In this document: in pieces, positions 3,969-52,061 of the stretch
Position numbering within the stretch: the stretch's first letter is position 1
How the letters are laid out: every line of letters starts with the position of its first letter
Assembly (NCBI GenBank): GCA_964601155.1
Contig: CAZRMO010000003.1
Location: forward strand, 21,066-85,065
DNA: 64,000 nucleotides
Reading direction: 5' to 3'
Origin: an uncultured Enterobacteriaceae bacterium
GTDB lineage: Bacteria > Pseudomonadota > Gammaproteobacteria > Burkholderiales > SG8-39
The notes under the pieces: generated by a model
What the model was told of the DNA's origin: nothing
Database searches by the model: none
The model's input: only the letters and a program-made list of their open reading frames with translations
Program-made: the position numbers and the translations under genes

Positions 3969-4214
3969 TTTACCATCATTCCTTGCCGTGACCGATTGCG
4001 GCGCCGGCGCGCGTTCCTTTCGCCGTCGCGGCGCTGCGCGGGCAGGGCGCCCCCGTACGGCGGCATCCCGGGTCGCTGCGGGTGTGGGGATGCCCGGGCG
4101 CGAAGCGGTTCTCCAGTGCGGCGAGGGCTGCGCGGCCGGCGGCAAGGCACGGATTTCCGGCGCGGCTCAGCGATCCGGAGCCGACCTGCTGCGATTACTG
4201 CGGTCTTAGCGGCT

Positions 4215-28802: not shown

Positions 28803-28959
28803 GGGGAAGCTCCTGAAAGCGACACATTCAATAGCTGGTGCAGTTGCTTGGTTGATCTGATTCAAACAATGGGATAATATCCCATTGTAATTCTGCCAGC
28901 GCCGGCTTTTTGCGCAGAGTGCATGAATAATTGTGGAACCACCAATGGAGGCTCTTGTA

Positions 28960-29390: not shown

Positions 29391-29771
29391 CTACTGCTTC
29401 ATTTCACGCTTGAGGATGTCCGCCGCGGCAGCGGCGGACATGCCGCGGCAGCGCGCGTTCCACAGGTAATCGAACATCGAATGGCTCAGCGCGCCCTCTA
29501 TCTGCGGCGGGCTGGGCGTTTGCGTCGCGTCTGCAAGAAAGCGCTTGCCGTTTGCGCTTCCACAAATAATCGGACCCAGCTTGCTCGGAATCAGCCTGAG
29601 CCCCTCGAAGCTGACATCGGCGGCGGGCCGCCCCAGCGCCTTCGCAACGTCTACGCGCGCCTGTTGCAGCAGAGGCCCCTCGTTTTCATGCTGGGCGTCA
29701 GACAGCGACGGACCCAGCGCCAAGGCCAGGATGAGCATGCGGTAAAACCAACGGCATACGGCTTGCTTCAT
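29391..29771 (-). CDS. Hypothetical secreted protein
   Basis: 127 aa from MKQAVCRWFYRMLILALALGPSLSDA (signal-peptide-like). Same strand as, and downstream of, the cytochrome pair. No family recognised. Confidence 0.5.
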   Translation of the reverse strand: MKQAVCRWFYRMLILALALGPSLSDAQHENEGPLLQQARVDVAKALGRPAADVSFEGLRLIPSKLGPIICGSANGKRFLADATQTPSPPQIEGALSHSMFDYLWNARCRGMSAAAAADILKREMKQ

Positions 29772-29865
29772 GCTGTCCCCAGTGCCAGCCCCGGTCTGGT
29801 AGATAGCGGGATCGGAGCCCCCCAACGTGTGCTGGGAGGCTCGATTTCTCTCAAAGACGCCCTGC

Positions 29866-30510
29866 CTACTTCGCAGTCATACTCCGCAGATAAGCGGCGA
29901 CCGCTTCCATGTTTTTGTGGTCGAGCGAGTGGGTGATCGTCTTCATTACGACGCCGTCCGGTCTTTCGTTGGTCCGCTGGAACACGTTGAGTTGCTTGAC
30001 CACGTAGTCCGAATGTTGATACGCGATGCGGGGAAACAGGCCGTTGCCCTGGCCGTGATCTCCGTGGCAGGATGCGCAGGGCGGAACACCCTTTGCCGGC
30101 AACCCATCGTGGAATATCTGCTTGCCCATGGCCGCCAGCTTCGGATTTCCCGGCGCGAGGGGAACTGATTTTTGCGAGGAGAAGTACTCCGCCAAGCCCT
30201 TGATCTGGGCATCGGTCAGGCTGCGGCTGATGCCCCACATGTATTCGAATCCGGGGGGATCGTCGCGGTGATGGCTGCGGAACATCGTAAGCTGCCCGAC
30301 TATGTACTCCTGCTGCTGCTGGGCGAGCTTGGGAAAAGTGGGATTGATGGAATTGCCGTCGACGTTGTGGCAGTTCGAGCAGACCTGCTCGGCCAGGGTC
30401 TTGGCAGGAACATTGGGGTTGCCCAGGTCGCGCGAGCGCACCAGCGTCGTCGTGCAGCCGGTGCCGAACGCGGCAGCGGCCAGTACCACTGTAATTGTTG
30501 CGATTTTCAT
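29866..30510 (-). CDS. Dihaem cytochrome c4-type lipoprotein (Cyc1-like)
   Basis: Lipobox FGTGC. Two CxxCH motifs (CSNCH, CASCH), each in a class I cytochrome c half-domain. GGAGAC upstream of ATG 30510. Confidence 0.85.
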   Translation of the reverse strand: MKIATITVVLAAAAFGTGCTTTLVRSRDLGNPNVPAKTLAEQVCSNCHNVDGNSINPTFPKLAQQQQEYIVGQLTMFRSHHRDDPPGFEYMWGISRSLTDAQIKGLAEYFSSQKSVPLAPGNPKLAAMGKQIFHDGLPAKGVPPCASCHGDHGQGNGLFPRIAYQHSDYVVKQLNVFQRTNERPDGVVMKTITHSLDHKNMEAVAAYLRSMTAK

Positions 30511-30593
30511 TTTACGGTCTCCGAATATTTTCATCATGTATGTCGGGGGTGCGCCGCCTTTGCGGCGCACCTCGGGTCATTGAAACCAGCTGT

Positions 30594-31874
30594 TCAATAT
30601 GCGCCCCAGATATAGAAGAACACAGTGTTGTTGTCGCTTGCGCCCACGCTAGTGTCATTGAACCTGCTGAACTTGGTGTATTGCAGGCCTACCCGCACGT
30701 ACTGCTTCGGGAGCCAGAATACTTCCGGCGTCCAGCCGCTTGAGTTGTACCGGGCATCCACTGCGCTAAAACCCGACGCGTTATTGTCAGTATTGTCGTA
30801 ATTGAAGTAGGAAAGCGTGGCGCCGTATTTCGCCTGATAGGTAAAGGAGGTCTTGGCCCTCAGGGAATTGACCGTGTCGCTTGCGAGGCCCGGCGCGCCG
30901 GGATCGATTGTTTCGTGGATGCGCGTGACCATCGCGGTGAGCGTGTAGGGATCGAGCAGATACTGGTATTGGGCATCGAAGCCGGTGTCGCGGTAGTGGT
31001 CGGTCGGGCCGCCGGGGGTGCTCGAATCCGTATACGGACGAACATCGAAGTGCGTCATGCCGACCATGATGTTGTTCGGACCCCATTCTTTGGTGTACGC
31101 CAGACGGATGTAGGGATTGGTTCCCTTGATATATACCTGGCCGCCGTTACCGTGGGTCATGAAGGAAAACACGCCGTCGCCGGTCCGATAGCCGCTGATT
31201 TCCGCGTACAGCGTCTTGTTCCAGTAGGCATAGGCGCCGATTCCGACCGCTTGTTGTCCGAGGCCGTCTTCAAGAATGGTCGAGGTGCCGGATCCTTGTC
31301 CTGTGGAGCCGGGCACGATGCCGTAGCCCCAGGCCGGCGCGCTGTTGAACACGTCCTCCACCGTGGGATTGTTATTCAGCGTCAGGCCGTAGATCAGGTC
31401 CCGGTGGTTGTTTATCAGGTGGTCGGCGTAGCGGATGTCCATGTTGTCCGGGCCGGAACGGCCATACCAGCCGTTAGCGGGTTTAGGGCCGCCGTCGGGA
31501 TTGTAATTGTTGAAGGTGATCTGGGCGAAGCCGCCGATCCGGTCGGTGATCTTTCCGGCGATGAACAGGCTCGCGGTGTTGAAAATGAGTGATCCGTTCT
31601 CGAGCTTCCCGTTGGCCGGATCATTGGCCTTCACCTTGTTGGAGGTCACCACAGCCATCATCGCGAGCGGCAGCTCGCGCTGTCCGATGGTGTAGCCGGT
31701 CAGCTTGAACAGGCGCCCGTAGGGGGTCAGTTCCGGGAACTGGCCGCCCGCATGGCAGGCCACGCAGTTCTGGCCGGTCTGGCGCGCGAACGAGGGTACG
31801 GCTTGGGCTTGCGGCGCGAGGACCAGCAGCAATGGGATGAGGGCGCAGGCACCAGCAACCCGAGCGGCAAGCAT
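30594..31874 (-). CDS. Fused monohaem cytochrome c-outer membrane beta-barrel protein (Cyc2-like candidate)
   Basis: Signal peptide (...LAPQAQA|VPSF). Single CVACH 13 residues into the mature protein. Then about 390 aa of alternating amphipathic, Gly/Tyr/Asn-rich sequence ending in the OMP beta-signal FFYIWGAY*. Start at ATG 31874 is preferred. Confidence 0.65.
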   Translation of the reverse strand: MLAARVAGACALIPLLLVLAPQAQAVPSFARQTGQNCVACHAGGQFPELTPYGRLFKLTGYTIGQRELPLAMMAVVTSNKVKANDPANGKLENGSLIFNTASLFIAGKITDRIGGFAQITFNNYNPDGGPKPANGWYGRSGPDNMDIRYADHLINNHRDLIYGLTLNNNPTVEDVFNSAPAWGYGIVPGSTGQGSGTSTILEDGLGQQAVGIGAYAYWNKTLYAEISGYRTGDGVFSFMTHGNGGQVYIKGTNPYIRLAYTKEWGPNNIMVGMTHFDVRPYTDSSTPGGPTDHYRDTGFDAQYQYLLDPYTLTAMVTRIHETIDPGAPGLASDTVNSLRAKTSFTYQAKYGATLSYFNYDNTDNNASGFSAVDARYNSSGWTPEVFWLPKQYVRVGLQYTKFSRFNDTSVGASDNNTVFFYIWGAY

Positions 31875-32363
31875 GCGGCCAATTTTTTTCGCCAGCGTCG
31901 GCACGATCACGACCGTGCCGGCGGTGTTTTTAATTCCCTGCGATCCCCGGGGGCTCCGTGATCCGCGCAAATCGATACCCATAATGTCATCCCTCCACTT
32001 CGTTGATGTAAACCGTTAATTTAGCTACAAACATTGACTACAAACCGTATGTCCGCTGCCAACCCGATATGCGATCGCGCGCATTCGTCGGTGCCCAGAA
32101 TTTCTTCAGTAAAAGCCGTGAGTCCTGGCACTTGAGGCCATTTCCCTCGGACACCCGAGATTGCCTAGAGCCGGCTAGGCCGACTCGCGCAGCAGCATCT
32201 AAATTCCGGATGAGAGTTGACGTGCAGCCGTGGACAAACAGAGTCGAGAAGCTTGTGCTTTTGGAAATCATGCAGGTCCACTAAACATGGGCCGCACTTT
32301 AACGAAGTTGGACGGATCGAAATAGTAGACAATATAGAATTATTAGTTCCTGGAATTGCAACA

Positions 32364-33606: not shown

Positions 33607-34010
33607 CCCGGGACCGGCAAATCAGCCTAGGGGGCCGAGGGATAAATCGAATTTACCAGTCGATTCGTCATGCCTGTTGATTCTTGTCAACGGCTCCGCT
33701 CGTCGTGCGCTACCTTGCCGCGATTAAAACGCGGCACTATGATTTGTCGGGGCTGTCTTAGAAAAAAGCGGGTGGTTTGTTTGGGGACGACATCTTACAA
33801 TCCCGGCCGGCCTTTCTTTTTGCTTGCAAGCTTTTCATCGCACACATCAATCATTCCGAGCAGAGCGAGGAATCTGCCGTCAAATTAGGACAGGAGCAGA
33901 TTCCTCGGCCGACGGCCTCGGAATGACAGGTCATTCGGAAATGGCTTCTAAGAATAGATTTGGGAAAGCATGAAAGTTTTTAAAATTCGCGCCCCTATGG
34001 GGGAAACAAA

Positions 34011-36286: not shown

Positions 36287-38476
36287 TTGTCTGCGCTTAG
36301 GAAGATTGCGGTCAGCACCGGCATGTTCTGGGTCGAGGTGGCGGCCGCCGACCTGCGCATACTGTGCGGATGCCCGGTGGACTCGGTCAAGCATCTGCTC
36401 CGACGGGGCCTGATTGTCTCCACCGAAGTGGACGGCGTCGAATGCGAAACCGGACCCAACGCCATTCTGCTCTCGGATCTCACCATTCAAAACGGCCGCG
36501 CGTGCAGCCGTTCGGAGTTTCCGGTTCTGCAAATGTTGTACAAGCAGGGCATGATAGTGCCGGATCATCCGTGCAACACCGGCTTGCGGCCGCTGCTCAT
36601 CGGCTCGCACGCCCAGGTCGAGGCGCAGATGGAGTACCTGTTCTGCGGAAACTACGGCCTCGCCTCGCGCGAAGAATTGATCGAGGCCGATGTCGCGCCG
36701 GCGCAGGCGGACGAACTCATGCGCATGAAACTCGCGTTCGCGTTCGGCCGGATCATGCCCACCGAGGAACTTGTGGAGCCGCTCTTCCTGGGACGCGAAG
36801 CGGTCGAAATCCGCAATGGCGTCACCATTCGAAGGCTGCGCACCAACGTATTCGAATTGGCCTACCAGGGCGAGCGGATGGAGGTCGACCTCAATCTCGG
36901 GCCGGGCGAAGTGTACGAGTGTCCCTACACGCTCGACAGGCATTTGCTTACCACCGACTATTTCTCGGTCGTGCACACCGGGGACGGCGACGGCTGGGAC
37001 ATGAACCGGCCCACGATGGGCAGCATCCTCCTGTTCCAGGGGCGCGTGTATCTGGTGGACGCCGGCCCGAACATCGATTATGCGTTGACTGCGCTGGGGA
37101 TCAGTGTCAACGAAATCGACGGCATTTTCCACACTCACTGCCATGACGATCACCTGGCCGGGCTGACGACCCTGTTCCGTGGAGACCGTCGCATCGCCTA
37201 CTATGCGGTTCCCATGGTGCGTGAATCGGTCATCAAGAAGCTGTCGACGGTGATGCGCATCCCGGAAGCCGAATTCGGGCGGCTGTTCGACGTGCATGAT
37301 CTGGTGCTGGACAAATGGAACGATATAGAAGGGCTGGAGGTCAGGCCCGTGCTTTCGCCGCATCCGGTCGAGACGACGATTTTCTATTTCCAGGTGATGT
37401 GGGAAGGGGGCTATCGCAGCTACGCGCATCTCGCGGATACCGTATCGCTCGACGTTCTGCGCAACATGATCGCAGCTGAAAGCGCGCCGGCCGGCGTCAG
37501 CCAGGCGTTTTTCGACAGGACTGCGGATGCCTATGCGCTCAGAGCCGATGTCAAGAAGATCGATATCGGCGGCGGCATGATACACGGCGTGGCGCAGGAT
37601 TTCCGTGAGGACAGGTCGGACAAGCTGATACTTGCGCACACGGCGCGGCGGCTTACCGAGGATGAGCGCGCTATTGGATCGGGCGCGCCTTTTGGGACCG
37701 TGGACGTGCTCATCGAAGGTACCTCGGACGTGCTGCGCCGCCGGGCGTATGAGTACCTGCGCAGCTACTTTCCCGACGCGCCTTTGCATCGCATTCGTCA
37801 CCTGTTGAACAACAAGATTCTGGTATTCAATCCGGAAGTGCTCCTGTTCAAGGAACAGGCGCCGATCGATGCCGTCTACCTGATTCTCAGCGGATCGGCG
37901 GAATTGCTGCGTACGGGCCACCGCAGCAGGAGCCTGGTCACTGCCGGTTCATTTCTGGGCGAGACGCCTGCGCTGCTTGGAAAGACGGCTATGGAAACCT
38001 GCCGCGCGGTCGGCTTCGTGCAGGCGCTGCGCTTGCCTCGGGACCTGTACCTCGATTTTGTCAGCCGCGGAGAGATGCGCCTGAATCTGGTTCAATCGCG
38101 TGAAAAGCTCGATTTTCTGAGGGGCAACTGGCTGTTCGCGGATGGCGTGTCCTGCGTGACGCTCAGCCGGCTGATCCGCTCGGTCGAGTCGGCTGTTTTC
38201 GAAAAGGACAGGATTATTCCGCCTCCGGCCGAAGAGCTGTTGGTGCTGCGCTCGGGCGAAGCCTTGCTGACCGCGCCGTCGGGGTACGAGGAACGTCTCA
38301 TCACCAACAGATACGTGGGCGCCACCGCAATTTCCCGGGACGAGTCGAAAGGCGCGCAGCTTCGATTTCTCGAGTTATCGGAGGCCTACCGCTTCCCGCT
38401 GAAAACCATTGCCGATATCCCGGTCGTGCGGTGGAAATTGCTGGAGGCGCATCGTCGGCGCTACTCCGACAATTGA
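36287..38476 (+). CDS. Multidomain protein: unknown N-domain + metallo-beta-lactamase fold + two CAP/cNMP-binding-like domains
   Basis: 729 aa. MBL motif HTHCHDDH with downstream His/Asp. C-terminal AVYLILSGSAELL...GSFLGE...CRAV..VQALRL beta-roll pattern, then a second more degenerate copy. TTG start uncertain (alternative ATG 36323). Confidence 0.65.
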   Translation: MSALRKIAVSTGMFWVEVAAADLRILCGCPVDSVKHLLRRGLIVSTEVDGVECETGPNAILLSDLTIQNGRACSRSEFPVLQMLYKQGMIVPDHPCNTGLRPLLIGSHAQVEAQMEYLFCGNYGLASREELIEADVAPAQADELMRMKLAFAFGRIMPTEELVEPLFLGREAVEIRNGVTIRRLRTNVFELAYQGERMEVDLNLGPGEVYECPYTLDRHLLTTDYFSVVHTGDGDGWDMNRPTMGSILLFQGRVYLVDAGPNIDYALTALGISVNEIDGIFHTHCHDDHLAGLTTLFRGDRRIAYYAVPMVRESVIKKLSTVMRIPEAEFGRLFDVHDLVLDKWNDIEGLEVRPVLSPHPVETTIFYFQVMWEGGYRSYAHLADTVSLDVLRNMIAAESAPAGVSQAFFDRTADAYALRADVKKIDIGGGMIHGVAQDFREDRSDKLILAHTARRLTEDERAIGSGAPFGTVDVLIEGTSDVLRRRAYEYLRSYFPDAPLHRIRHLLNNKILVFNPEVLLFKEQAPIDAVYLILSGSAELLRTGHRSRSLVTAGSFLGETPALLGKTAMETCRAVGFVQALRLPRDLYLDFVSRGEMRLNLVQSREKLDFLRGNWLFADGVSCVTLSRLIRSVESAVFEKDRIIPPPAEELLVLRSGEALLTAPSGYEERLITNRYVGATAISRDESKGAQLRFLELSEAYRFPLKTIADIPVVRWKLLEAHRRRYSDN

Positions 38477-39667: not shown

Positions 39668-39870
39668 GGTCTTGCGCGGGCGCCCAAAAAAGAAAGGACC
39701 CGGGACGCACTGGTCGCCACCGGGCCGAAATACTTCCTGGCAGATGTTTTTTCGCGGGCAGGAGAGTTCCCAAACATCTGTGTCGATGATCCCATGGTTT
39801 TCCCTTGCGCGGCTTGCCTTAGGTCAAACGCCCCATTTTTGTTTGGCGCAGCTTGCAGGCAGGCTTTGGC

Positions 39871-39952
39871 ACAATATATAGAATACAATATATGCATATA
39901 AACAGTTAACTATACAATTATATTAAAGTACATTATAGATATCGGAATAAGC
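39871..39952. promoter_or_regulatory. Strikingly AT-rich block with a palindrome in a divergent intergenic region
   Basis: About 80 bp almost devoid of G/C in a GC-rich genome. Contains the perfect 12-bp palindrome TATATGCATATA (39889-39900) and repeated TATAGAATA/TATACAATTATA motifs. Lies between the divergent dehydrogenase (-) and GNAT (+) genes. Confidence 0.5.
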
Positions 39953-40044
39953 ATTGATCGCGGTCAATGGCTGCCGCGCGGCCTAGCCTAACATTGCTTG
40001 CAGGCGCCGGACAGCGCCGGATTGGAGCTTGCGAGCGCGCATCC

Positions 40045-40572
40045 ATGGCGGAGTATCCAACACAGCTGATACGGCAGCGCGTATTGCGCGATGGCACGCC
40101 CGTGACCATACGGCCGATCCGTCCGGAGGACTCCGGCATGGAGCAGGAATTCGTGCGCCATCTCTCGGACGATACCCGTTACTTTCGCTTCATGGGCTCC
40201 TTGCGGGAACTGCCATCGAAAAAACTGAGGTCCTTCACCGAAATCGATTACCGGCGGCACATGGCTTTTGTCGCCGTCATCACGCAGGACGGAAAGGAAC
40301 TGGAGATCGGGGTGGCGCGCTACGTTGCTACCGAAGATCCCACCAACTGCGAATTCGCTATCGTGGTCGACGATGCCTGGCAAGGTAGTGGCGTTGCGGG
40401 AATGCTGATGTTTTCCCTGCAACGCGCGGCCTGCGAGCAAGGATTCAAGACGATGGACGGCATCGTGCTCGCGGAGAATTACAAAATGCTCAGGTTCGCC
40501 AGGCAACTCGGCTTCAAGTGTCGTCGCGTACCGGGTGAGTCCGATATCGTGCACGTAGAGGTGCGCTTATGA
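40045..40572 (+). CDS. GNAT-family acetyltransferase resembling the catalytic domain of Pat-type protein lysine acetyltransferases
   Basis: VTIRPIRPEDSGMEQEFVRHLSDDTRYFRF and WQGSGVAGMLM (acetyl-CoA P-loop-like Q/RxxGxG/A). ATG 40045 is preferred. Confidence 0.7.
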   Translation: MAEYPTQLIRQRVLRDGTPVTIRPIRPEDSGMEQEFVRHLSDDTRYFRFMGSLRELPSKKLRSFTEIDYRRHMAFVAVITQDGKELEIGVARYVATEDPTNCEFAIVVDDAWQGSGVAGMLMFSLQRAACEQGFKTMDGIVLAENYKMLRFARQLGFKCRRVPGESDIVHVEVRL

Positions 40573-40686: not shown

Positions 40687-42486
<1,800 letters not shown>

Positions 42487-42499
42487 GCGCGAGGCCGCA

Positions 42500-43498
42500 A
42501 TGAGCATCCACAAGACCGCGGCGACGCCGGGCAGCGAGCGCGAGCATGCGCTCTCGCTGCTGCGGCAGATGCTGCTCATACGCCGCTTCGAGGAGAAAGC
42601 AGCCGAACTCTACAGCGCGGGAAAAATCCGCGGCTTCCTGCATCTGTATATAGGCGAAGAGGCGATCGCGGTGGGCGCGATGCAGGCGCTAGGCGCGGAG
42701 GATGCGGTGGTCGCGACCTACCGCGAGCACGGCCACGCGCTCGCGCGCGGCCTGCCCGCCGGAGCGATCATGGCGGAAATGTATGGCAAGGCGAACGGCT
42801 GCAGCCGCGGCCGCGGCGGCTCGATGCACCTGTTCGATGTCGGGCGCCGCTTCTATGGCGGCTATGCCATCGTCGCCGGCGGTCTGCCGGTTGCGGTGGG
42901 CCTCGCGCTCGCCGACAAGATGCAGGAGCGGCAGGCGGTGACGGCGTGTTTTTTCGGCGAAGGCGCGGCCGCGGAGGGCGAATTCCACGAATCGCTCAAT
43001 CTGGCGGCGCTGTGGCGGCTGCCGGTCCTGTTCCTTTGCGAAAACAATCTCTACGCGATGGGCACCGCGCTGGAGCGCTCGGAATCGCAAACGGATATCC
43101 ACCTGAAGGCGCAGAGCTACAACATCGTCGCCGAGGCGGTCGACGGCATGGATGTGCTGGCGGTGGAGTCAGCGGTGCAACGCGCGGTCGCGCAGCTGCG
43201 CCGCGGCGAAGGCCCTTACTTTCTCGAACTGCGCACTTATCGCTATCGCGCGCACTCCATGTCCGATCCGGAACTCTACCGCAGCAAGGAAGAGGTCGCG
43301 CAGTGGCGCGGCCGCGATCCGATATCGCTGTTCGATGCCTACCTCAGGGGAAACGGCATGCTCGACGACGCCGAACTGAAGACGCTCGAAACCGACGTCG
43401 CCAAGGATGTCGATTGGGCCGTGGCCGAAGCGGAGAAGGGCGCGTGGGAGCCGGTCTCCGATCTGGAGCGCGACGTTTATGCCAGCGCCGGCGCCTAG
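42500..43498 (+). CDS. Thiamine-diphosphate-dependent 2-oxoacid/acetoin dehydrogenase E1 alpha subunit
   Basis: 332 aa. TPP motif [37 protein letters not shown] and [11 protein letters not shown] phospho-loop region. Confidence 0.9.
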
Positions 43499-43527
43499 CG
43501 CTTCCCTATGAAAGCATTGGAGCCGCA

Positions 43528-44496
43528 ATGGCCAAGATGACCTACCGAGTAGCAGTGCGCGAAGCGATGCGCGAAGCACTGCGTGCGGACCCGCGCGTGT
43601 TTCTCATGGGCGAAGACGTGGGCAAGTACGGCGGCTGTTTCGCGGTGAGCCATGGGCTGCTGGACGAGTTCGGGCCGAAGCGCGTACGCGACACGCCGCT
43701 GTCCGAGTCGACTTTCGTCGGCGCCGGCATCGGCGCAGCGCTGGGCGGCATGCGACCGATCGTCGAGATCATGACCATCAATTTCAGCCTGCTCGCGCTC
43801 GACCAGATCGTCAACAATGCCGCCATCTTGCGCTATATGTCGGGCGGCCAGCTAGGCGTCCCATTGGTGGTGCGCATGGCAACGGGCGGCGGCCGGCAGC
43901 TCGCCGCGCAGCACTCGCACAGCCTCGAAGGCTGGTATGCGCACATCCCGGGGATCAAGGCCGCGGCGCCGGCGACCGTGGCCGATGCCAAGGGTCTGCT
44001 GCTCGCCGCGCTGAAGGAGCCCGACCCGGTAATGCTGTTCGAACATGCGACCTTGTATCCGCTGGAAGGCGAGAGCGAGGACGACACGCCGATGGAGTTT
44101 GGTCGCGCGGCGCTGCGGCGCGCTGGCCGCGACGTGAGCCTGATCACTTATGGCGGCGCACTGGGCAAGACGCTGCAGGCCGCGGCGCAGCTGGCCGAGC
44201 AGGGTGTGGATGCCGAGGTCATCGACCTGCGCAGTCTGCGCCCGCTGGATACCGAGACCATCTTTGCCTCGCTGGCCCATACCCACAGGGCGGTGATCGT
44301 GGAGGAGGCGTGGAAAGCTTGCGGCTTCGGGGCCGAGGTCAGTGCGCGCATCATGGAAGGCGCGTTCGACGCACTCGACGCACCGGTCGTCCGCGTGTGC
44401 GGGGCGGAAGTGCCCATGCCCTACGCGCAAGCCCTGGAGCAGGCCGCTTTGCCGCAGCCGGAGACCATAGTCAAAGCGGTGCGGGAGTTGCTTTAG
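43528..44496 (+). CDS. 2-oxoacid/acetoin dehydrogenase E1 beta subunit
   Basis: 322 aa from [28 protein letters not shown]....GL..EFG..RV.DTPLSE is the E1-beta consensus. Confidence 0.9.
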
Positions 44497-44498
44497 TC

Positions 44499-45800
44499 AT
44501 GGCGGAGTTCCTTATGCCGCGCTTGGGTGCCGACATGACCGCCGGCAAAGTGGTGGCCTGGCTCAAACAGCCGGGGGAACGCATCAAACGCGGTGACGTC
44601 ATCGCCGTCGTCGAAACCGACAAAGCCAACGTCGATGTGGAGTCCTTCGTCGACGGAGTGATGGAAAAGATTCTGGTTCAGCCCGGTGACGAGCGGCTCC
44701 CGGTCGGCACGCCGCTTGCGCTGATTGGGGGCGAGGCCGGCGCGGAAGCTGCGGCACCTGCACCGGCTCCCGCTCCCGCGGCGCCTGCGCCGGCCACCGC
44801 GGCGCCTGCGCCGGCCACCGTGGCGCCTGCGCCGGCCACCGCAGCGCCGCGCGCGGTCGTCACACCGGGGGCTGCCGCGCCGGCGCCTGTTCCATCCGTA
44901 GTGGCCGCGCCGGAGAAGGCTCCGAGCCCGGCAGCGCCGGCAGCATCGCGACCCGCTGGCGCGGGCGAGCGCGCACGCATCTCGCCGGCAGCACGCAAGC
45001 GCGCACAGGAATTGCGGCTGGATCCGGCAACGCTGGCAGGCACGGGTCCGCAGGGACGCGTGACGCTCGCCGACGTCGAGCGCGCCGCGCAGGGCGTCAA
45101 GAAGGAAGCCGGCGCGGGCGATACCGCGGCGGCGCGCCAAATTCGCATGCGCGAAGCCATCGCCACGGCTATGGCACGTTCCAAGCGCGAAATCCCCCAC
45201 TATTATCTCGCCAGCACCATCGACTTTGGGCGCGCGCTGGGGTGGCTCGCCGAGCGCAATGCGGGCCGTGCCGTGACCGAGCGCCTGATCTATGCCGTGC
45301 TGCTGATCAAGGCGTCGGCACTGGCCTTGCGCGAGGTGCCGGAACTGAACGGGTTTTGGATCGACAACCATGCCGAGCAAAGCGATGCGATCCATGCCGG
45401 CATCGCAATTTCCCTGCGCGGCGGCGGGCTGGTGGCGCCGGCGCTGCACCACGCGGATCGGCAGTCGCTGGACGAACTGATGCACGGATTCCAGGACCTC
45501 GTCAAGCGCGCGCGCGCAGGTTCGCTCAAGAGTTCGGAGGTCACCGATCCCACCGTGACCATCACCAGCCTGGGCGAACGCGGGGTGGAGTCGCTGTTCG
45601 GCATCATCACGCCGCCGCAGCTCGCGCTGGTCGGCTTCGGCACGCCGCTGGAGCGGCCCTGGGTGGTGGACGGCAAGGTGATGGCGCGCCCGCTGCTGAG
45701 CGCGACGCTTTCCGGGGATCACCGCGCCACCGACGGCCACCGCGGCGCACTTTTTCTGACAGCGCTGGATCGCTTGCTGCAACAACCGGAGGCTTTATGA
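44499..45800 (+). CDS. Dihydrolipoamide acyltransferase (E2): lipoyl domain, subunit-binding domain, catalytic domain
   Basis: Lipoyl-Lys ETDKA, Ala/Pro linker, [19 protein letters not shown], catalytic DHRATDG. Starts 2 nt after the E1-beta stop. Confidence 0.9.
44781..44843 (+). repeat. 3 x 21-bp tandem repeat inside the E2 linker
   Basis: GCGCCTGCGCCGGCCACCG(C/T)G repeated three times, encoding APAPATA x3. An ordinary flexible linker feature. Confidence 0.85.
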
Positions 45801-46057
45801 GCAAAGACGAAATCCGCACGCGCGTGATCAAGACCCTGTCCGGGATCGTGCCCGAACTCGATCCGCGCAATCTCAAGCCCGCCGTGAGCCTGCGCGATCA
45901 GCTCGACGTAGATTCCATGGATTTCCTCAATTTCCTGATCGCCCTGCACCAGGAATTCGGCGTGGACGTGCCCGAGTCCGACGCGGGAAAGCTCGGCACG
46001 ATCGATGCCTGCGTAGACTATCTGGAACAGGCGCTGCAGCAGCGCACTCAAGTTTGA
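45797..46057 (+). CDS. Acyl carrier protein-like (phosphopantetheine attachment site)
   Basis: 86 aa. [17 protein letters not shown] matches the ACP D-S-(L/M)-D helix II motif. Its ATG overlaps the E2 stop (ATGA at 45797-45800). Confidence 0.8.
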
Positions 46058-46178: not shown

Positions 46179-47822
46179 TTGAATTCCCCACCTTTCATCC
46201 AGACCCAAGTCCTGATCATCGGCGGCGGCGCCACGGGCACGGCGCTGGCGCGAGACCTCGCCTTGCGCGGCGTCGACTGCATCCTTGTCGAAAAGAACGA
46301 CATCAACGCCGGCGCCTCGGGGCGCAATCATGGCCTGCTCCACAGCGGCGCCCGCTACGTCGCGGGCGACCCCCAGGTGGCGATCGAGTGCCGCGCCGAG
46401 GGCGCCATTCTCAAACGCATGGCGGCGCAGACGATCCAGGATACCGGCGGCTATTTCGTCGCGGTGCAGGGCGACGACGAACGTTATATCGCCGACTTCC
46501 CTTCGCTTTGCGCGCGCGCGGGAATCGCTGCGCGCGCAGTGGACCCCGCCGCGGCGCGCGCGCTGGAACCGGCGCTCTCGGAACGCACGATTGCGGTGTT
46601 CGAGGTGCCCGACGCATCGATCGACCCGTTCCGGCTCTCCCTGGAAACCATGGCTCATGCGCGCAGCCTGGGCGCGCGGCTGATGCGGCGCACCCAGGTC
46701 GTAGGCTTCGAGCGCGAGGGCCGGCGCATCCGCGCAGTGCGGCTTCGGTCACTGACTGGCGGCGAGGACCTGCGTATCGAGGCCGAGCAGGTCATCAATG
46801 CAGCGGGCGCCTGGGCGCCCGAAGTGGCCTTGCTCGCCGGAGCGCCGATCGAGATGACGTACTCCAAGGGAACGCTGCTGGTCACGCACACACGTCTGGC
46901 CGAGCGCGCGGTGACCCGCCTGCGGCCGCCGGCCGACGCCGACATCCTGATGCCGGCCGGCACGGTCTCCATCGTCGGCACGACGTCGACCCCCGTTAAT
47001 ACCTTGGACGACATCCAGCCGACGACGGCCGAAGCCGACCTGATCGTGGCAGAGGCCGCGCGCATGCTGCCGGCCTTGGCGACGATGCGCTACATCCGCG
47101 CTTTCGCGGGCGTGCGACCGCTCGTAGGTTCGGCGGGTCTTGCCGACGGCCGTGCCATTTCGCGCGGCTACGCCCTGTTCGACCACGAGGATCAGGGTCT
47201 GGACAATTTTGCGACGATCACCGGGGGCAAGCTCAGCACCTGCCGGCTAATGGCCGAACGCGCCGCGGACCTGCTGTGCCGGCGCCTCGGCGTGACGCGC
47301 CCCTGCGTCACGGCCACGATGCCCTTGCCTGTGGCTCCGGAATGCGAGTGGACCGAACCGGGACGTTCCCCGCGCGCGTGGATGCGTAGCCACGCGCGGG
47401 ACGATACGCTGCTGTGCGAGTGCGAGTTGGTTCCGGGCCGCGCCGTCGACGCCATCTACGACGCGCTGCGCGCGGCAGGCGACACGCCGACGCTGACGGA
47501 CATCGGCTTGCGCAGCCGCGTCGGCAAGGGCGCTTGCCAGGGGGCCTTCTGCGCGCCACGCACCGTGGCCCATCTCTACAACCGCGGCGACTTCCAGGCG
47601 CGTCGCGGCCTCGCCGAGATTGTCGATTTCTTCGATGAGCGCTGGCGCGGCCAGCGCGCGGTCCTGTGGGGCGAGCAACTCGCCCAGGCCGAGTTGATGG
47701 AAGCGCTGCATTGCGGCACTTTCGGGGAGGAACTGCGCGGAGAAGAGTTGCGCGATGCCCGCATGGACGACGCACCGCGCGCCGCGCCGAACGCGGACCC
47801 GGCGGGTAAGGCGTCGCGGTGA
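46179..47822 (+). CDS. glpA: Anaerobic glycerol-3-phosphate dehydrogenase subunit A
   Basis: 547 aa. FAD fold VLIIGGGATGTALARDLALRG, GASGRNHGLLHSGARY, C-terminal BFD-like [2Fe-2S] region CECE...C.GAFC. TTG start. Confidence 0.88.
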   Translation: MNSPPFIQTQVLIIGGGATGTALARDLALRGVDCILVEKNDINAGASGRNHGLLHSGARYVAGDPQVAIECRAEGAILKRMAAQTIQDTGGYFVAVQGDDERYIADFPSLCARAGIAARAVDPAAARALEPALSERTIAVFEVPDASIDPFRLSLETMAHARSLGARLMRRTQVVGFEREGRRIRAVRLRSLTGGEDLRIEAEQVINAAGAWAPEVALLAGAPIEMTYSKGTLLVTHTRLAERAVTRLRPPADADILMPAGTVSIVGTTSTPVNTLDDIQPTTAEADLIVAEAARMLPALATMRYIRAFAGVRPLVGSAGLADGRAISRGYALFDHEDQGLDNFATITGGKLSTCRLMAERAADLLCRRLGVTRPCVTATMPLPVAPECEWTEPGRSPRAWMRSHARDDTLLCECELVPGRAVDAIYDALRAAGDTPTLTDIGLRSRVGKGACQGAFCAPRTVAHLYNRGDFQARRGLAEIVDFFDERWRGQRAVLWGEQLAQAELMEALHCGTFGEELRGEELRDARMDDAPRAAPNADPAGKASR

Positions 47823-49123
47823 CGGGCGCAAGGCAGGAAAGCTGCGACCTTGCCGTGATCGGCGCCGGAATGGCAGGCATGGCGGCGGCCCTGTTCGCCG
47901 CGGAGCGTGGACTTTCGTGCATCCAAATCGGCAACAGCGGCGGCCTGCTGTTCGCGAGTGGCTTGCTCGACCTTCTGGGCGTACACCCGGTGGCCGAGGG
48001 GCGCCTGTGGCAATCGCCTTACGCAGGCCTCGAGGCGCTCGCCCGGGACGAGCCCGACCATCCTCTGGCGCGTGTCGACGCCGCCTCGATCCGCAACGCG
48101 CTCGAGACCTTCGTCGCGGCGCTCGGCAGTGCCGGGCTTGCATATGCGCCTCTGGCCGACCGGAATCGCAAGTTGCTCACGTCTATCGGGACGGTCAAGA
48201 CCACATTCGGCGTGCCGCGATCGATGGTCGCGGGCGACTATGCGCTGGAGGCACGGCCACCTTGCCTGTTGGCGGACTTCCGCGGACTGCGCGAGTTCAG
48301 CGCAGCGCAGATCGCAGCGACGCTGGGCGATCGCTGGCCCGGTCTGCGCCATCAGCAGATCGAGTTCCCCGGTCATGAAGCCGTGCCCGAACTCTATGCT
48401 GCGCACCTCGCGCGCGCCCTCGAAAGCGGAGAGACGTGCGGGCGGACAATCGCCCTGGTGAAGCCGCTGCTCGGCGACGCGCGCGTGGTCGGATTCCCGG
48501 CGGTCCTTGGCCTCGCGCGCGCGGGCGCGGTCCACGCCGCGTTCGAGGCTGCGCTCCGAATACCGGTGTTCGAGATTCCGACCATGCCGACGTCGGTGCC
48601 CGGGCTGCGCCTGCAGGGCGCGCTGGAAACGGCTGTGTCGGTCCGCGGCGTGCATCGGCGCCAGCAGGCAAGGGTGCGCGCTTTGTCTTTCGAAGCGGAC
48701 GGGGGCAGGGCCGTGCTCGAACTCGACGGTATTCCGGGCGGCGAGCGCGTGCTCGCCCGTGCGGTGGTGCTGGCCACGGGGCGATTCAGCGGCCGCGGCC
48801 TCACCGCCGATCGCGGCTGCGTCCGCGAGAGCATCCTCGGCCTGCCCGTGGCTCAGCCCAACTCGCGCGAGGCCTGGCACCAGCGCGACTTCCTCGACCC
48901 GGCGGGCCACGCGATAAACCGCGCCGGCCTGTCCATCGACGAGGTTTGGCGGCCCCTGGGCGCGAACGGAAAGCCGGTGTGGCCGCGGCTCTACGCCGTC
49001 GGCTCCATCCTCGCGCACCAGGATTGGATGCGCTCGAAGTGCGGCTCGGGCTTGTCCATCGCCACGGCCTGGGCGGCGGTGGACCAAGTGGCGCGCCAGC
49101 TCCGCGGCAATGGGACAGGGTAG
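47819..49123 (+). CDS. glpB: Anaerobic glycerol-3-phosphate dehydrogenase subunit B
   Basis: 434 aa. DLAVIGAGMAGMAAALFAAERG dinucleotide fold. GTGA overlap with the glpA stop. Confidence 0.8.
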   Translation: MTGARQESCDLAVIGAGMAGMAAALFAAERGLSCIQIGNSGGLLFASGLLDLLGVHPVAEGRLWQSPYAGLEALARDEPDHPLARVDAASIRNALETFVAALGSAGLAYAPLADRNRKLLTSIGTVKTTFGVPRSMVAGDYALEARPPCLLADFRGLREFSAAQIAATLGDRWPGLRHQQIEFPGHEAVPELYAAHLARALESGETCGRTIALVKPLLGDARVVGFPAVLGLARAGAVHAAFEAALRIPVFEIPTMPTSVPGLRLQGALETAVSVRGVHRRQQARVRALSFEADGGRAVLELDGIPGGERVLARAVVLATGRFSGRGLTADRGCVRESILGLPVAQPNSREAWHQRDFLDPAGHAINRAGLSIDEVWRPLGANGKPVWPRLYAVGSILAHQDWMRSKCGSGLSIATAWAAVDQVARQLRGNGTG

Positions 49124-49319
49124 CTAGTGTCCCGAGTCGCTAATTCGCTGAAGAAAAGACGCCGAGAATCGACGCCATACGGCGTTGCAAATGCTCGCAA
49201 GGTGTCCAACCTTGCTGCGCTTTGCGCCTTGTCTGGCGCCGATTTCGCCGCTTTTCCGCTTCAACCATTGTTTCGTCCTCAGGCAATTGTTCAACGAACT
49301 AGCGACTCGGGACACTAGC
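49123..49319. mobile_element. MITE-like non-autonomous element or long terminal-inverted-repeat structure
   Basis: Perfect 20-bp terminal inverted repeats: GCTAGTGTCCCGAGTCGCTA (49123-49142) and TAGCGACTCGGGACACTAGC (49300-49319). Imperfect pairing continues about 11 bp inward. No coding capacity. Fills the whole glpB-to-next-gene spacer. Confidence 0.6.
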
Positions 49320-49320
49320 C

Positions 49321-51045
49321 ATGTCGCCTGTGCTTTTCCAGACCGCCCTTTACATCTCGCTCGCGCTGTGCGGCCTGGGCCTCATCTGGCGCGCCTCGGC
49401 CTGGTTCAGGGTCCGGATCGGTACCGATGCGCGCGCTGTCACGTGGTCCGCGCGCATGGCTGCGCTGTTTCGCGGCACCACCTGGGTTTTGTTCAGCCGG
49501 CGCCTGTTCGCCGTGCTCGGCGCCTTCTTTCTCGATGTGCTGCTGCTGCGCAGGCTGTACACGCACGAGAAGCTGCGCTGGTTCGCACACCTGCTCATCG
49601 TGGTCGGCTTTATGCTGCTCCTGCTGCTGCACGCCCTCGCGCCGATCGTGAGCGCGAAGCTGTTTCCGGGCTACCAGCCCACGCTCGATCCCTACCTGTT
49701 TCTGCGCGATCTCTTCGGAGTGATGGTTCTGGCTGGCGCCGCTCTGCTGTTGCTCGGACGCCGGCCTGCCCGCAGGGACCTGGCGCAAACGCGCGATCGG
49801 TTCGGCGCGGCCTTCATGGCGCTCCTCGCGTTTGTTCTCGTCTCGGGATTCCTGCTCGAAGCCTGCAAGATCGCATCGCCGCACGCCTTCTACCGCATGA
49901 CGGACCAGTTCATGGGCACCACCGATCCCCAGAAACTCGCGCCGCTGCGCGCCCTCTGGGGGAGCGAGTTCGGGGTGGCGTTCGCCGACATGAAGCAGCC
50001 GATCGACCCGCTCCTGCTGGAGCAGGGGCGCAAACTGAACAGCGAATCCTGTGCGTCCTGTCACGCGAAGCCGGCGTCCGCTTTCGTCTCCTACCCGCTG
50101 GCACGGATGCTGGCGCCCGTGACCCGCCTTCTGGACGAAGGACATGCGGATGTCTGGCTACTCTATCTTCATGTGTTCGCCTGCTTCCTCGGCCTGGCGA
50201 GCCTGCCGTTCACCCGCTTCTTCCACGTGGTGGCAGCTCCGCTCAGCCTGCTCGTCGACGCCGCGTCGCAGGATCCGGCGTTCTCGACCCATACGTTTTC
50301 GACCGCGGGTCGCGCTATGCGGCGGGCGCTGGCGCTCGACGCCTGCGTGCGCTGCGGCATCTGCGATCTGCGCTGCTCGGTGGCCCCGCTGGCGCGCTAC
50401 CTGGGCAACCCGGGTCTGCTGCCCTCGCACAAGCTGCTCGCCACCGGCGCCCTGGCCGGCGGCCGGCTGCTGCGTGCTGGCCACGAAGACGAGGCGCTGC
50501 GGGCCGCCGACGGGGCCTTCCTCTGCACCGACTGCGGACGCTGCACCAGCCGCTGCCCGGTGGGTATCGATCTGGCGGACCTGTGGCAGGCCGGACGCGG
50601 CGATTTGGCCGCAGCAGGACTTCCGACGCCCGCACAGTGGGTGCAGGCAAATCCGGCGCTTGAATGGGCCGAGTTTCTGCAGGCAGATTCCGGACTGCAT
50701 ACGCTTGACGATCCGGATGCCTCCAGTGCACCGCTCTCGTCCGAGCGCAGCACGTTCTCCCGCTGCGTTCAGTGCCAGACCTGCACTAACGTTTGCCCGG
50801 TGGTGGCGCACAGCATCGACGCCGAGCACGGTATCGACCTTACGCCGCAGAAGGTGATGAACCTGCTGCGGCTTGGCCTGCGCGACCTTACGCTGGGTTC
50901 GCGCATGGTATGGGACTGCGCGACCTGCTACCAGTGCCAGGAGAGCTGCCCGGAAGGCATACGCGTGGCCGACATCATGTGCGAGCTGCGCGGCTTGGCG
51001 GTACAGCGGTTGGGCTCCGTTCGGAACTGGAAGGAGCACGCATGA
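49321..51045 (+). CDS. Membrane-anchored iron-sulfur protein: NarI/DsrM-like polytopic N-domain fused to a four-[4Fe-4S]-motif domain
   Basis: N-terminal region of about 330 aa with at least 5 hydrophobic helices carrying His (HLLIVVG, LLHAL, LHVFACF, FFHVV). C-terminal CVRCGICDLRC, CTDCGRCTSRCP, CVQCQTCTNVCP, CATCYQCQESCP. Confidence 0.75.
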   Translation: MSPVLFQTALYISLALCGLGLIWRASAWFRVRIGTDARAVTWSARMAALFRGTTWVLFSRRLFAVLGAFFLDVLLLRRLYTHEKLRWFAHLLIVVGFMLLLLLHALAPIVSAKLFPGYQPTLDPYLFLRDLFGVMVLAGAALLLLGRRPARRDLAQTRDRFGAAFMALLAFVLVSGFLLEACKIASPHAFYRMTDQFMGTTDPQKLAPLRALWGSEFGVAFADMKQPIDPLLLEQGRKLNSESCASCHAKPASAFVSYPLARMLAPVTRLLDEGHADVWLLYLHVFACFLGLASLPFTRFFHVVAAPLSLLVDAASQDPAFSTHTFSTAGRAMRRALALDACVRCGICDLRCSVAPLARYLGNPGLLPSHKLLATGALAGGRLLRAGHEDEALRAADGAFLCTDCGRCTSRCPVGIDLADLWQAGRGDLAAAGLPTPAQWVQANPALEWAEFLQADSGLHTLDDPDASSAPLSSERSTFSRCVQCQTCTNVCPVVAHSIDAEHGIDLTPQKVMNLLRLGLRDLTLGSRMVWDCATCYQCQESCPEGIRVADIMCELRGLAVQRLGSVRNWKEHA

Positions 51046-51848
51046 AATACGCGCTGTTCCTCGGCTGCAAGATCCCTGCACAGCTGCCGGCCTACGAGAC
51101 GTCCATGCGCGCCGTGCTCGGGCACCTCGGTGTCACCCTGATCGATCTGGAGTTCAACTGCTGCGGCTATCCGGCGCGGAATTACAGCCATGACGCCTTC
51201 GTGGTGGCAGCCGCCCATAACCTGGCCCTGGCGGAGCGCGCCGGCCTCGACCTGCTGACGCCCTGCAGTTGTTGCTTCGGCACCCTGCGGCACGCGATCC
51301 GGTTCCTGAACGAGGACGCGCAGCTGCGCGCGCGCGTTGCCCAGGCGCTGGCCGCCGAGGGCCTCGCCTGGTCGGGAAAGACCCAGGTCGAGCACTTGCT
51401 GCCGCTGTTGGCGCGTACGATCGGCGTTGACGCTCTTGCGGCCGCGGTGCGCATCCCGCACGCGGGGCTGCGTGTGGCCGCCCAATACGGCTGCCACGCG
51501 CTGCGCCCCAGCGACGTGAGCGGAATCGACAACGCGATGGCGCCGACGCTGTTCGAAACGCTGATCAGCTTGACCGGTGCGACCCCGGTCGACTGGCCAC
51601 GCCGGCTGGACTGCTGCGGTGATCCGCTGCACGAAGCGAACACCGCATTGTCCGAGCGTATGACGCAAGCGAAGATCGCCGATGCGCTCGAGTCCGGTGC
51701 CGAAGCCATCTGCTCGGCCTGCCCTCACTGCCAGCTGCGCTTCGACGCAGTCCAGGCGGAGAGCACTGACCCTTCGATTCGCACGCTGCTCTACACGCAG
51801 CTTCTCGGTCTGGCGATGGGCCTGCCCGCGAAATCCCTCGGGCTGTAG
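51042..51848 (+). CDS. CCG-domain protein (heterodisulfide reductase subunit B / GlpC C-terminal half-like)
   Basis: 268 aa. Two Cys-rich CCG motifs (FNCCGYP, LDCCGDP) plus CSCCFG and CPHCQ. ATGA overlap with the previous gene. Confidence 0.8.
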   Translation: MKYALFLGCKIPAQLPAYETSMRAVLGHLGVTLIDLEFNCCGYPARNYSHDAFVVAAAHNLALAERAGLDLLTPCSCCFGTLRHAIRFLNEDAQLRARVAQALAAEGLAWSGKTQVEHLLPLLARTIGVDALAAAVRIPHAGLRVAAQYGCHALRPSDVSGIDNAMAPTLFETLISLTGATPVDWPRRLDCCGDPLHEANTALSERMTQAKIADALESGAEAICSACPHCQLRFDAVQAESTDPSIRTLLYTQLLGLAMGLPAKSLGL

Positions 51849-52061
51849 CTTTCGGGAACGGCGCGTCATCGGCGCCGGACGGTCGCAGTAGGTGGGGTGT
51901 GCGAAATGCGGCGGTATTGAAATTCCCGTCTTTTCTTGATTTCCCTCAAGGGGCTCCTTTCGGGGTAGGTTAAAAAGACGATGTTGACCGAGTGGATGCT
52001 TCCGGCGGCCGGCGAGTATTCCCGCGCTCAGGGGCGGGCCAATGAATTAAGGGGGAACGCA

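Follow-up and report, generated by a model that had tools for sequence, protein, structure and literature searches.

In the pathways to quinocarcin (QncN/QncL/QncM) and scleric acid (the split set SclQ1-4), a thiamine diphosphate (ThDP)-dependent E1, a lipoyl-E2 and an acyl carrier protein (ACP) bring a C2 unit onto the ACP (PMC6335953). A gene set of similar make-up lies in the 64,000-nt stretch of contig CAZRMO010000003.1 analysed here (the window, always meaning its full length), where genes for E1alpha, E1beta and E2 of a pyruvate dehydrogenase (PDH)-type complex are preceded by that of an AcsA-type ligase and followed by that of a small ACP. The likeness, judged from the published gene-set description, covers a split E1 (one part ThDP-binding, the other with pyrimidine-binding and transketolase-C domains), a lipoyl/acyltransferase E2, a small ACP and the lack of a listed dihydrolipoamide dehydrogenase (E3, Lpd) (PMC6335953); the initial annotation of the window, made from its letters, had rightly named this precedent. 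However, the Qnc and Scl genes belong to non-ribosomal peptide synthetase (NRPS) clusters and produce a glycolyl group from a ketose phosphate, whereas the cassette has no assembly line, contains a PDH-type E1 and a universal acetate ligase as its fifth gene, and occurs in settings of stress or primary metabolism in many phyla. The E1alpha, E1beta and E2 are closest to those of the canonical pdhA-pdhB-pdhC-lpdA operons of the alphaproteobacterial/mitochondrial type (human PDHA1 and DLAT, Sphingobium pdhABC), with which they share domains and catalytic motifs. They differ in that the ACP gene replaces lpdA, the ligase gene is added upstream, the E2 core is diverged and bears its own signature, and the proteins form a separate clade; in addition, the E1beta corresponds to the C-terminal part of PRK11892, a 464-aa model, and lacks an N-terminal lipoyl domain. 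Citrate lyase offers an analogy, as its AMP-forming ligase CitC acetylates the thiol of the dedicated ACP CitD, and both systems may share the principle of a carrier protein reserved for an acetate-activating ligase. However, CitD has another prosthetic group, CitC is no Acs homologue of the cassette type, and the cassette contains no lyase subunits. In the pairing of Acs with Pat/AcuA, a Pat-type acetyltransferase of the GNAT superfamily likewise stands beside an AcsA-type ligase with an intact target lysine motif, SGKIMRR. The partner domains of known Pats, treated in part in PMC6434083, are cNMP-binding, ACT and NDP-forming-synthetase-like domains, whereas the GNAT of the window has no sensor domain and its relatives are fused to the ACP subfamily of the cassette instead.

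Five genes of the window belong to a conserved, mobile, PDH-type cassette, in which an ACP occupies the E3 slot, the acetate ligase is modified, and the ACP is of a kind also found fused to Pat-type GNATs. The run from E1alpha to ACP is, on comparative grounds, the core of a conserved and horizontally mobile operon encoding an acsA-type ligase, E1alpha, E1beta, E2 and ACP. NCBI names the five genes individually (acsA, pdhA, E1 beta, dihydrolipoamide acetyltransferase, acyl carrier protein), and the set is not flagged as a unit. A full-text literature search, limited to one paper collection, found no description of the cassette; PMC13411936, considered as a report on it, was a false lead. Read straight from the sequence, the five genes are:

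40687-42486, + strand: AcsA-type acetate-activating ligase (AMP-forming), a variant without the A8 arginine (NF003313)
42500-43498, + strand: E1alpha, ThDP-binding, of a PDH-type 2-oxoacid dehydrogenase (TIGR03182; closest structure human PDHA1)
43528 (ATG) to 44494-44496 (TAG), + strand: E1beta (PRK09212; Transket_pyr and Transketolase_C)
44499 (ATG) to 45798-45800 (TGA), + strand: E2 (three Pfam domains)
45797-46057 (ATG 45797-45799), + strand: ACP, 86 aa (PF00550)

The E1alpha, E1beta, E2 and ACP genes are contiguous on the + strand, the ligase gene lies directly 5′ of E1alpha, and a small GNAT gene precedes the ligase. The E2 start follows the E1beta stop after 2 nt, the E2 stop and the ACP start share an ATGA (45797-45800), and a GGAGG is located 7 nt 5′ of the ACP start. 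E2 consists of the Pfam domains Biotin_lipoyl, E3_binding and 2-oxoacid_dh, with the lipoyl-lysine K42 in VETDKA (nt 44622-44624), a peripheral-subunit-binding domain at ~44976-45080 and a catalytic domain at ~45141-45794 containing DHRATDG, of which His408 is encoded by nt 45720-45722. The presumed phosphopantetheine site of the ACP is Ser40 (nt 45914-45916) in D-S-M-D. The contiguity of the four genes from E1alpha to ACP, the 2-nt spacing, the ATGA overlap, the subunit-binding domain and the lipoyl-lysine, DHRATDG and D-S-M-D motifs had been described in the initial annotation and were found in the sequence as given; its four genes were correct, but the ligase and the GNAT, which are part of the unit, had been overlooked. 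The absence of E3 was likewise borne out, as a tblastn search with the E. coli Lpd protein returned nothing in the window at E<=1e-3 and recovered lpdA in all five of the comparator operons used as a positive control (Sphingobium PDH, a Rhizobium operon, a Priestia operon, a C. difficile Aco-like operon and Sphingobium Bkd). In each of these five ordinary E1-E2 operons lpdA directly follows E2, the position taken by the ACP gene in the cassette, and tblastn found no Lpd within ~10 kb in any cassette locus.

To judge how far the arrangement extends, one genome per species was scanned with two ACP peptide patterns, which matched 543 loci; 93 loci were fetched, and 88 could be scored at the E2/ACP junction. 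The best 80 of the 543 derive from Burkholderiales, Planctomycetota, Chloroflexia, Acidobacteriota, Nitrospira (including an isolate), Gemmatimonadota, Gaiellales, Binatia, Margulisiibacteriota and Alphaproteobacteria, and the cassette also occurs in Actinomycetota, Proteobacteria and Chloroflexota and on conjugative plasmids. The order acsA-E1alpha-E1beta-E2-ACP is kept in every locus with enough upstream DNA, with cross-phylum identities of ~65-73% for the ligase, 65-75% for E1alpha, 70% for E1beta, 50% for E2 and 50-60% for the ACP. E2 and ACP genes are adjacent, with the ACP gene always after E2, in 88 of the 88 scorable loci, so the linkage, whose occurrence beyond one strain had been set beforehand as a test, is found across phyla. 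The 4-nt overlap is present in 81 of these loci, and three of the seven that lack it have an unused ATGA 15 nt 5′ of the chosen ACP start. Since the overlap is kept in so many loci and phyla, the E2/ACP arrangement is far beyond chance, and the view that the linkage is meaningful is strongly supported by these comparisons. An unrelated or chance ACP, which had formed part of the conservative alternative in the initial annotation, is contradicted by this conservation and was rejected.

Other genes are occasionally inserted at the ligase/E1alpha, E1alpha/E1beta or E1beta/E2 junctions. They include a pyruvate kinase gene between E1beta and E2 in a Nitrospirae metagenome-assembled genome (MAG), an amino-acid dehydrogenase gene between ligase and E1alpha in a Gemmataceae MAG, and unnamed open reading frames (ORFs) of 161-251 aa between E1alpha and E1beta (L031, L041, L044, L076). 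A ~290-aa helix-hairpin-helix (HHH_8/HHH_5) protein is encoded between ligase and E1alpha in Acidobacteriota (L024, L031, L044) and recurs beside an ACP-GNAT fusion (L101, 3061-3948). No gene separates E2 from ACP in any locus examined, and the four E2-ACP gaps of >300 nt belong to loci with a partial E2 match.

The E1 proteins are of the PDH kind. E1alpha reaches 458 bits with the PDH E1alpha equivalog TIGR03182 (cut-off 394) and E1beta 413 bits with PRK09212 (cut-off 321). The closest solved structure of E1alpha is human PDHA1 (253 bits), the YRAHSMSDP loop is kept, and the ThDP motif reads GEG in the window protein and GDG in most relatives (GDG/GEG...NN; (F/Y)RAHSM loop). In a search of 72,556 plasmids, cassette copies of E1alpha were 60-80% identical to the window protein; the best non-cassette E1alpha, from a Sphingobium pdhA-pdhB-pdhC-lpdA operon, reached about 47-48%, and Aco-like E1alpha proteins are only 38-45% identical to the cassette E1alpha. 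Neighbour-joining trees with 200 bootstraps recovered the cassette proteins as monophyletic in 99.5% (E1alpha), 100% (E1beta) and 100% (E2 core) of replicates. The E1beta tree groups the cassette with alphaproteobacterial PDH at 95%; the E1alpha tree leaves the sister group open, with a Thermus gene annotated acoA as the nearest neighbour. By these trees and profiles, the cassette proteins are a clade of their own, nearest to alphaproteobacterial/mitochondrial PDH. In Leisingera, E1alpha and E1beta are fused into one protein of 665 aa (L091, 6845-8842).

In cultured strains, the five genes are annotated in the same order on a plasmid or chromid of each of the following: Cupriavidus sp. USMAHM13, Rhodococcus sp. 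DK17, Burkholderia savannae, Desulfotalea psychrophila, Methylocystis rosea, Leisingera methylohalidivorans, Sinorhizobium fredii and Ralstonia wenshanensis. Three of the cultured-strain plasmids are typed as conjugative. Inside the cassette clades, tree topology disagrees with organismal relationships; taken with the occurrence on plasmids, this indicates that the cassette has spread horizontally.

Family-specific changes mark both the E2 and the ligase. The E2 falls below the PDH E2 equivalog TIGR01349 (256 bits vs a cut-off of 445), although its closest solved structures are mammalian PDH E2s, and the acetoin E2 model NF011457 aligns with the lipoyl domain only. Its catalytic core is ~32% identical to ordinary E2s, as against 47% for E1alpha, and is thus far more diverged. 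DHRxxDG was found in 80 of the 88 loci, within a family signature DHRxxDG-HRG, and the TxK[AG] and subunit-binding motifs are present in nearly all cassette E2s (judged by eye, as the regular expression undercounted). Of 80 copies, 75 have a C-terminal tail of exactly 20 residues, which, after the LxxP motif, is 2 residues shorter than in human E2. The ligase scores 910 bits with NF003313 (acetate--CoA ligase, where CoA is coenzyme A; cut-off 729), and its closest structure is AcsA 9g79 (585 bits). It retains the WWQTETGG acetate pocket (64 of 68 cassette copies), the equivalent of Arg584 and the catalytic/acetylated lysine motif SGKIMRR (SGK(I/V/L)(M/L)RR in the family); on account of these three features, the acyl group that it handles is almost certainly acetate. 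However, all 67 cassette ligases compared have Leu or Met in place of the A8 arginine (R526 of S. enterica Acs), and the window protein reads SGHLIG where S. enterica Acs has SGHRLG and AcsA 9g79 SGERVG. The ordinary second Acs encoded in L004 retains SGHRLG. In mutational work on Acs, the A8 arginine is reported to act in the thioester-forming half-reaction. The CoA-binding residues R191/R194 of Acs were also considered as an indicator and proved uninformative, since the bona fide AcsA 9g79 lacks both as well.

The ACP forms a subfamily of its own. It passes PF00550 (31.5 bits vs a cut-off of 20.8) and remains below all NCBIfam AcpP cut-offs (best 46 bits vs 71), and its closest solved structures are mitochondrial ACPs. 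Across relatives, D39-S40-M41-D42 is invariant or nearly so, and the subfamily signature begins with APE and ends with IPExDY; Cys72, tried as a defining residue, was dropped as it occurs in only 82% of copies. Neither the family annotation of the window nor the Pfam census of neighbours revealed fab genes near the cassette ACP. The protein collection contains 258 close relatives, and the ACP profile had 1033 matches at E<=1e-10 among 1.84 billion representative proteins. Nearly all of these are stand-alone proteins of 80-100 aa, and several have a C-terminal domain, six being ACP-GNAT fusions and one an ACP-OsmC fusion. The GNAT part of the six is 39-48% identical to the window GNAT. The ACP-GNAT family comprises at least 170 protein clusters, with listed members of ~250-350 aa, occurs in Rhodocyclales and Burkholderiales MAGs, and retains the carrier serine in 120 of 120 fusions. 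In L102, the ACP-GNAT gene overlaps that of a ligase with the cassette signature SSGHLVGPVE, in which the A8 arginine is replaced as well, and no E1/E2 is present; in L101 the fusion lies among Usp, CBS/BON and cytochrome c genes, and in L105, L107 and L109 it stands alone.

Further variants concern the surroundings of the ACP. In a Burkholderiales MAG, two tandem cassette ACP copies follow E2 (L040, 1633-2190). An Sfp-type phosphopantetheinyl transferase (motifs VGID and W[VA]RKEAYLK) is encoded directly 5′ of the ligase in five Chloroflexia loci (L016, L017, L026, L034 and L049, ~4100-5040), after a DNA polymerase III alpha gene, and on a conjugative plasmid of Desulfotalea psychrophila a lipoate-protein ligase gene comes right after the ACP (L089, 12336-13346). 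The ACP-OsmC fusion is encoded directly 3′ of a cassette-type E2 with a 4-nt overlap (L103, 518-1237), and was seen on two contigs only. OsmC/Ohr peroxidases are reduced by dihydrolipoyl groups, and the fusion therefore hints at an E3-independent re-oxidation of the E2 lipoyl arm.

Upstream of the ligase, the window contains two further features:

39954-39967, + strand: FNR/CRP-type box TTGATCGCGGTCAA, ~90 nt 5′ of the likely GNAT start
40045-40572, + strand: stand-alone Pat-type GNAT (ORF opens at 39967; likely start M27 at 40045; Pfam and NF058543)

The GNAT matches Pfam Acetyltransf_3/1/7, and the NCBIfam Pat model NF058543 covers its GNAT part only. Among solved structures, it comes closest to the GNAT domains of the protein acetyltransferases 9isq/9it0 (877-886 aa), and then to 4nxy and Mt-Pat 4ava. 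An N-terminal regulatory/sensor domain is lacking; in relatives the N-terminal domain is the cassette ACP subfamily, to which the same type of GNAT is fused C-terminally. By Rosetta-stone logic, these fusions make it likely that the GNAT and the ACP of the window are partners. The upstream GNAT is confined to close Burkholderiales relatives. Between them, the fusions and the linkage to E2 and ligase connect the ACP subfamily, through gene arrangement, with acetyl-transfer enzymes of three kinds (PDH-type E2, AcsA-type ligase, Pat-type GNAT). In Nitrospira loci (L055, L056, L063, L065, L066, L074, L077), the ACP gene is followed by that of a 387-aa glutaredoxin-like/DsbD-like membrane protein and, in most of them, next by that of a ~918-aa Pat-like GNAT-containing protein. 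Two genes upstream of the window GNAT, 36287-38476 encodes a 729-aa protein with a metallo-beta-lactamase fold, a cyclic-nucleotide-binding domain and a weak Apyc1-like match. Between the GNAT and a divergent isocitrate/isopropylmalate-dehydrogenase-like gene lies a strikingly AT-rich stretch of ~80 nt (39870-39950, tatatagaatacaatatatgcatataaacagttaactatacaattatattaaagtacattataga) within a 64% GC genome.

In the lineage of the window, the cassette thus has a Pat-type GNAT before it, glpABC after it and an FNR/CRP-type site upstream. The genes 3′ of the ACP (46179-51848) form a module for an anaerobic-type glycerol-3-phosphate dehydrogenase, assigned by NCBIfam:

46179-47822, + strand: GlpA
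47819-49123, + strand: GlpB
49321-51045, + strand: Fe-S protein, 574 aa
51042-51848, + strand: CCG/HdrB-like protein, 268 aa

The function of GlpC is apparently split between the last two proteins, whose genes overlap by an ATGA (51042-51045), an arrangement also kept in L001, L004 and L009-L011. UgpBAE-like transport genes and a GlpK-like kinase gene lie 3′ of the CCG/HdrB-like gene, and a terminator scan found no convincing terminator on the + strand between ACP and glpA. However, Glp genes follow the ACP only in close Burkholderiales relatives (L001, L002, L004, L009, L010 and L011, with a partial GlpA on the short contigs L003, L005 and L007). This distribution is lineage-specific, and the Glp genes were rejected as part of the conserved unit; the proposal that a glycerol-3-phosphate-to-dihydroxyacetone-phosphate module supplies the donor finds no support in it.

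The wider neighbourhood was surveyed by Pfam censuses of 222 neighbouring ORFs, of which the 25 commonest families were considered. Usp is the commonest (25 ORFs), followed by CBS and Cpn60, and annotated loci also contain Hsp20, Lon/FtsH, BON, DUF2267, Crp/Fnr, ppsA, a pfkB-like kinase, otsB, a class II ribonucleotide reductase, ackA/pta and a GAF sensor kinase with a response regulator. Pyruvate kinase or ppsA is found in or beside the cassette in some loci, and Ralstonia carries ackA/pta in the same island. The 25 commonest families include no fatty acid synthase, polyketide synthase (PKS), NRPS, ketosynthase, condensation or adenylation-NRPS family, and LipB and LipA are absent from the common families of the censuses. 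The cassette often sits in Usp/Hsp20-type stress islands, and its neighbour content resembles that of low-oxygen/dormancy islands such as the lxa locus of B. cenocepacia; the paper on that locus lists ackA/pta but not the cassette. FNR/CRP-type boxes were found 5′ of the ligase in 6 of 64 loci (0.3 expected). The one at 39954-39967 has 1 mismatch to TTGATNNNNATCAA and, being a consensus match, is a predicted site; its position is shared by L001/L002, which have a perfect TTGATCGCGATCAA, and by L004 and L009, which have near-matches. The window has five such boxes, 1 mismatch each, vs 0.9 expected:

1882-1895, 28852-28865, 33677-33690, 39954-39967, 51936-51949: FNR/CRP-type boxes (consensus TTGATNNNNATCAA)

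One of these lies ~32 nt before a UgpB-like gene (51981) and another before a GlcD-like oxidase gene (34011), and the five may constitute a local FNR/CRP-family regulon. Elsewhere in the window, 57496-61158 encodes a 1220-aa DUF748/AsmA/YhdP-like protein, and two ORFs of 144 and 462 aa without a Pfam match (29391-31982) adjoin a dihaem cytochrome c gene (29866-30570).

Taking the cassette as a whole, the best explanation, put forward tentatively, is that the ACP is a dedicated acetyl carrier loaded by the E2 and/or the ligase. Going by family membership, E1alpha/beta would decarboxylate pyruvate on ThDP and reductively acetylate the lipoyl-lysine of E2, whose core would then hand the acetyl group to the 4′-phosphopantetheine thiol of holo-ACP, instead of or besides CoA. 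Four things suggest a transfer from E2 to ACP: the two genes are strictly coupled, the ACP stands where E3 would be expected, the E2 core is divergent, and Qnc/Scl provide a precedent. Acylation of the ACP by E2, as envisaged in the initial annotation, thus remains the leading reading, shorn of the glycolyl or ketose donor; the observation itself is confirmed and its interpretation partly supported. The ligase without the A8 arginine would link the acetyl-S-ACP pool to acetate and ATP, either loading or discharging the ACP. A Pat-type GNAT, if one is present or fused to the ACP, could take acetyl-S-ACP as its donor or sense it as a signal, as the ACP-GNAT fusions suggest. Re-oxidation of the dihydrolipoyl group would fall to an E3 whose gene lies elsewhere or to some other thiol oxidant. 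Candidate sinks for acetyl-ACP are GNAT-mediated acetylation, the reverse ligase reaction giving ATP, and the priming of lipid synthesis, and the neighbouring genes and the FNR-like site suggest that the cassette may be used in low-oxygen or dormancy-like states. That the ACP subfamily is a private carrier standing in for CoA in a small mobile system, so that oxygen-starved cells could make ATP from pyruvate independently of CoA, or protein acetylation of the Pat type could draw on a dedicated acetyl-ACP pool rather than on acetyl-CoA, is rather improbable.

Several observations weigh against a dedicated acetyl carrier. No universal consumer of acetyl-ACP is encoded near the cassette loci; the Pat-type GNAT cannot be one, as only 16 of 94 loci have it within reach. 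The net charge of the E2 core, considered as a sign of ACP docking, is no different from that of ordinary E2s. The link to low oxygen is one of gene context, and the window has no Usp or Hsp20 genes. Moreover, E2 retains all canonical features, the subunit-binding domain among them, and could therefore work in a normal CoA-using complex that shares its E3. The ligase exceeds the curated acetate--CoA ligase cut-off and has the CoA-binding Arg584 equivalent in place. The cassette might then be a second PDH plus AcsA for ordinary acetyl-CoA supply, borrowing its E3, with the ACP as a structural or regulatory element or as a partner of the GNAT only. One lpd gene is commonly shared among complexes, both E1 subunits exceed PDH cut-offs, the lipoyl, subunit-binding and catalytic domains of E2 are intact, and the solitary ACP-GNAT fusions of L105, L107 and L109 show that the ACP domain can function without E1/E2. 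This alternative is unlikely, if deserving of serious thought, as it leaves unexplained why an ACP with a 4-nt overlap should fill the E3 slot throughout so many phyla, why E2 and ligase have changed near their thiol-acceptor sites, and why a phosphopantetheinyl transferase has joined the operon in Chloroflexia. A special case of the acetyl carrier is an ATP-yielding shuttle, in which E2 would load the ACP and the ligase would run in reverse (acetyl-S-ACP + AMP + PPi -> acetate + ATP, where PPi is pyrophosphate), making the cassette a closed pyruvate-to-acetate unit of substrate-level phosphorylation for oxygen-limited cells. No other closed pathway can be drawn from the five universal genes by themselves; Acs enzymes of the AMP-forming kind catalyse a near-equilibrium reaction, and Syntrophus reportedly uses Acs to form ATP. 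The plasmids typed as conjugative fit as well, as does the proximity of ppsA, of pyruvate kinase and of ackA/pta, Usp and Hsp20 as fermentation-type neighbours. However, the signature ligase of L102, which accompanies an ACP-GNAT and no E1/E2, suggests forward loading of the ACP, Ralstonia already has ackA/pta in the island of its cassette, and the source of PPi is unexplained; the shuttle is quite unlikely.

Two other proposals carry very little probability. A unit of the Qnc/Scl kind, which would cleave a ketose phosphate and place a glycolyl (C2) group on the ACP with the Glp module as its feeder, is recommended by the same four-part architecture as SclQ1-4 and by the absence of E3. The initial annotation had suggested such a unit as possible, and it is opposed by an E1alpha above the PDH equivalog cut-off, a ligase with an acetate pocket in the universal set, Glp genes limited to one lineage, the pyruvate-forming enzymes (pyruvate kinase, ppsA) as recurring neighbours, and the lack of NRPS, PKS and ketosynthase among the 25 commonest neighbour families; it is highly improbable. 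Equally slight is the chance that the complex is an acetoin dehydrogenase (AcoABC-like), or that the ACP donates octanoyl for the lipoylation of the cassette E2. The Thermus acoA-annotated neighbour in the E1alpha tree speaks for the former, but the E1beta tree unites the cassette with PDH, Aco-like E1alpha proteins are distant, the acetoin E2 model matches nothing beyond the lipoyl domain, and no E3 follows in cassette loci. The lipoate-protein ligase on the Desulfotalea plasmid speaks for the latter, but LipB and LipA are not among the common neighbours, and neither proposal explains the ligase signature or the ACP-GNAT fusions.

Should the E2 and/or the ligase indeed use the ACP, as the dedicated acetyl carrier reading has it, textbook PDH/Acs chemistry would have a widespread carrier-protein-dependent branch that has been hidden by annotation, with cultured hosts in Cupriavidus, Rhodococcus DK17, Paraburkholderia phymatum, Methylocystis rosea and Leisingera. 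Judging by the ACP-GNAT fusions, there may be a new class of Pat-like acetyltransferases that contain a carrier-protein domain. As the cassette is so often located in Usp/Hsp20-type stress islands, it may also bear on how aerobes survive oxygen limitation.

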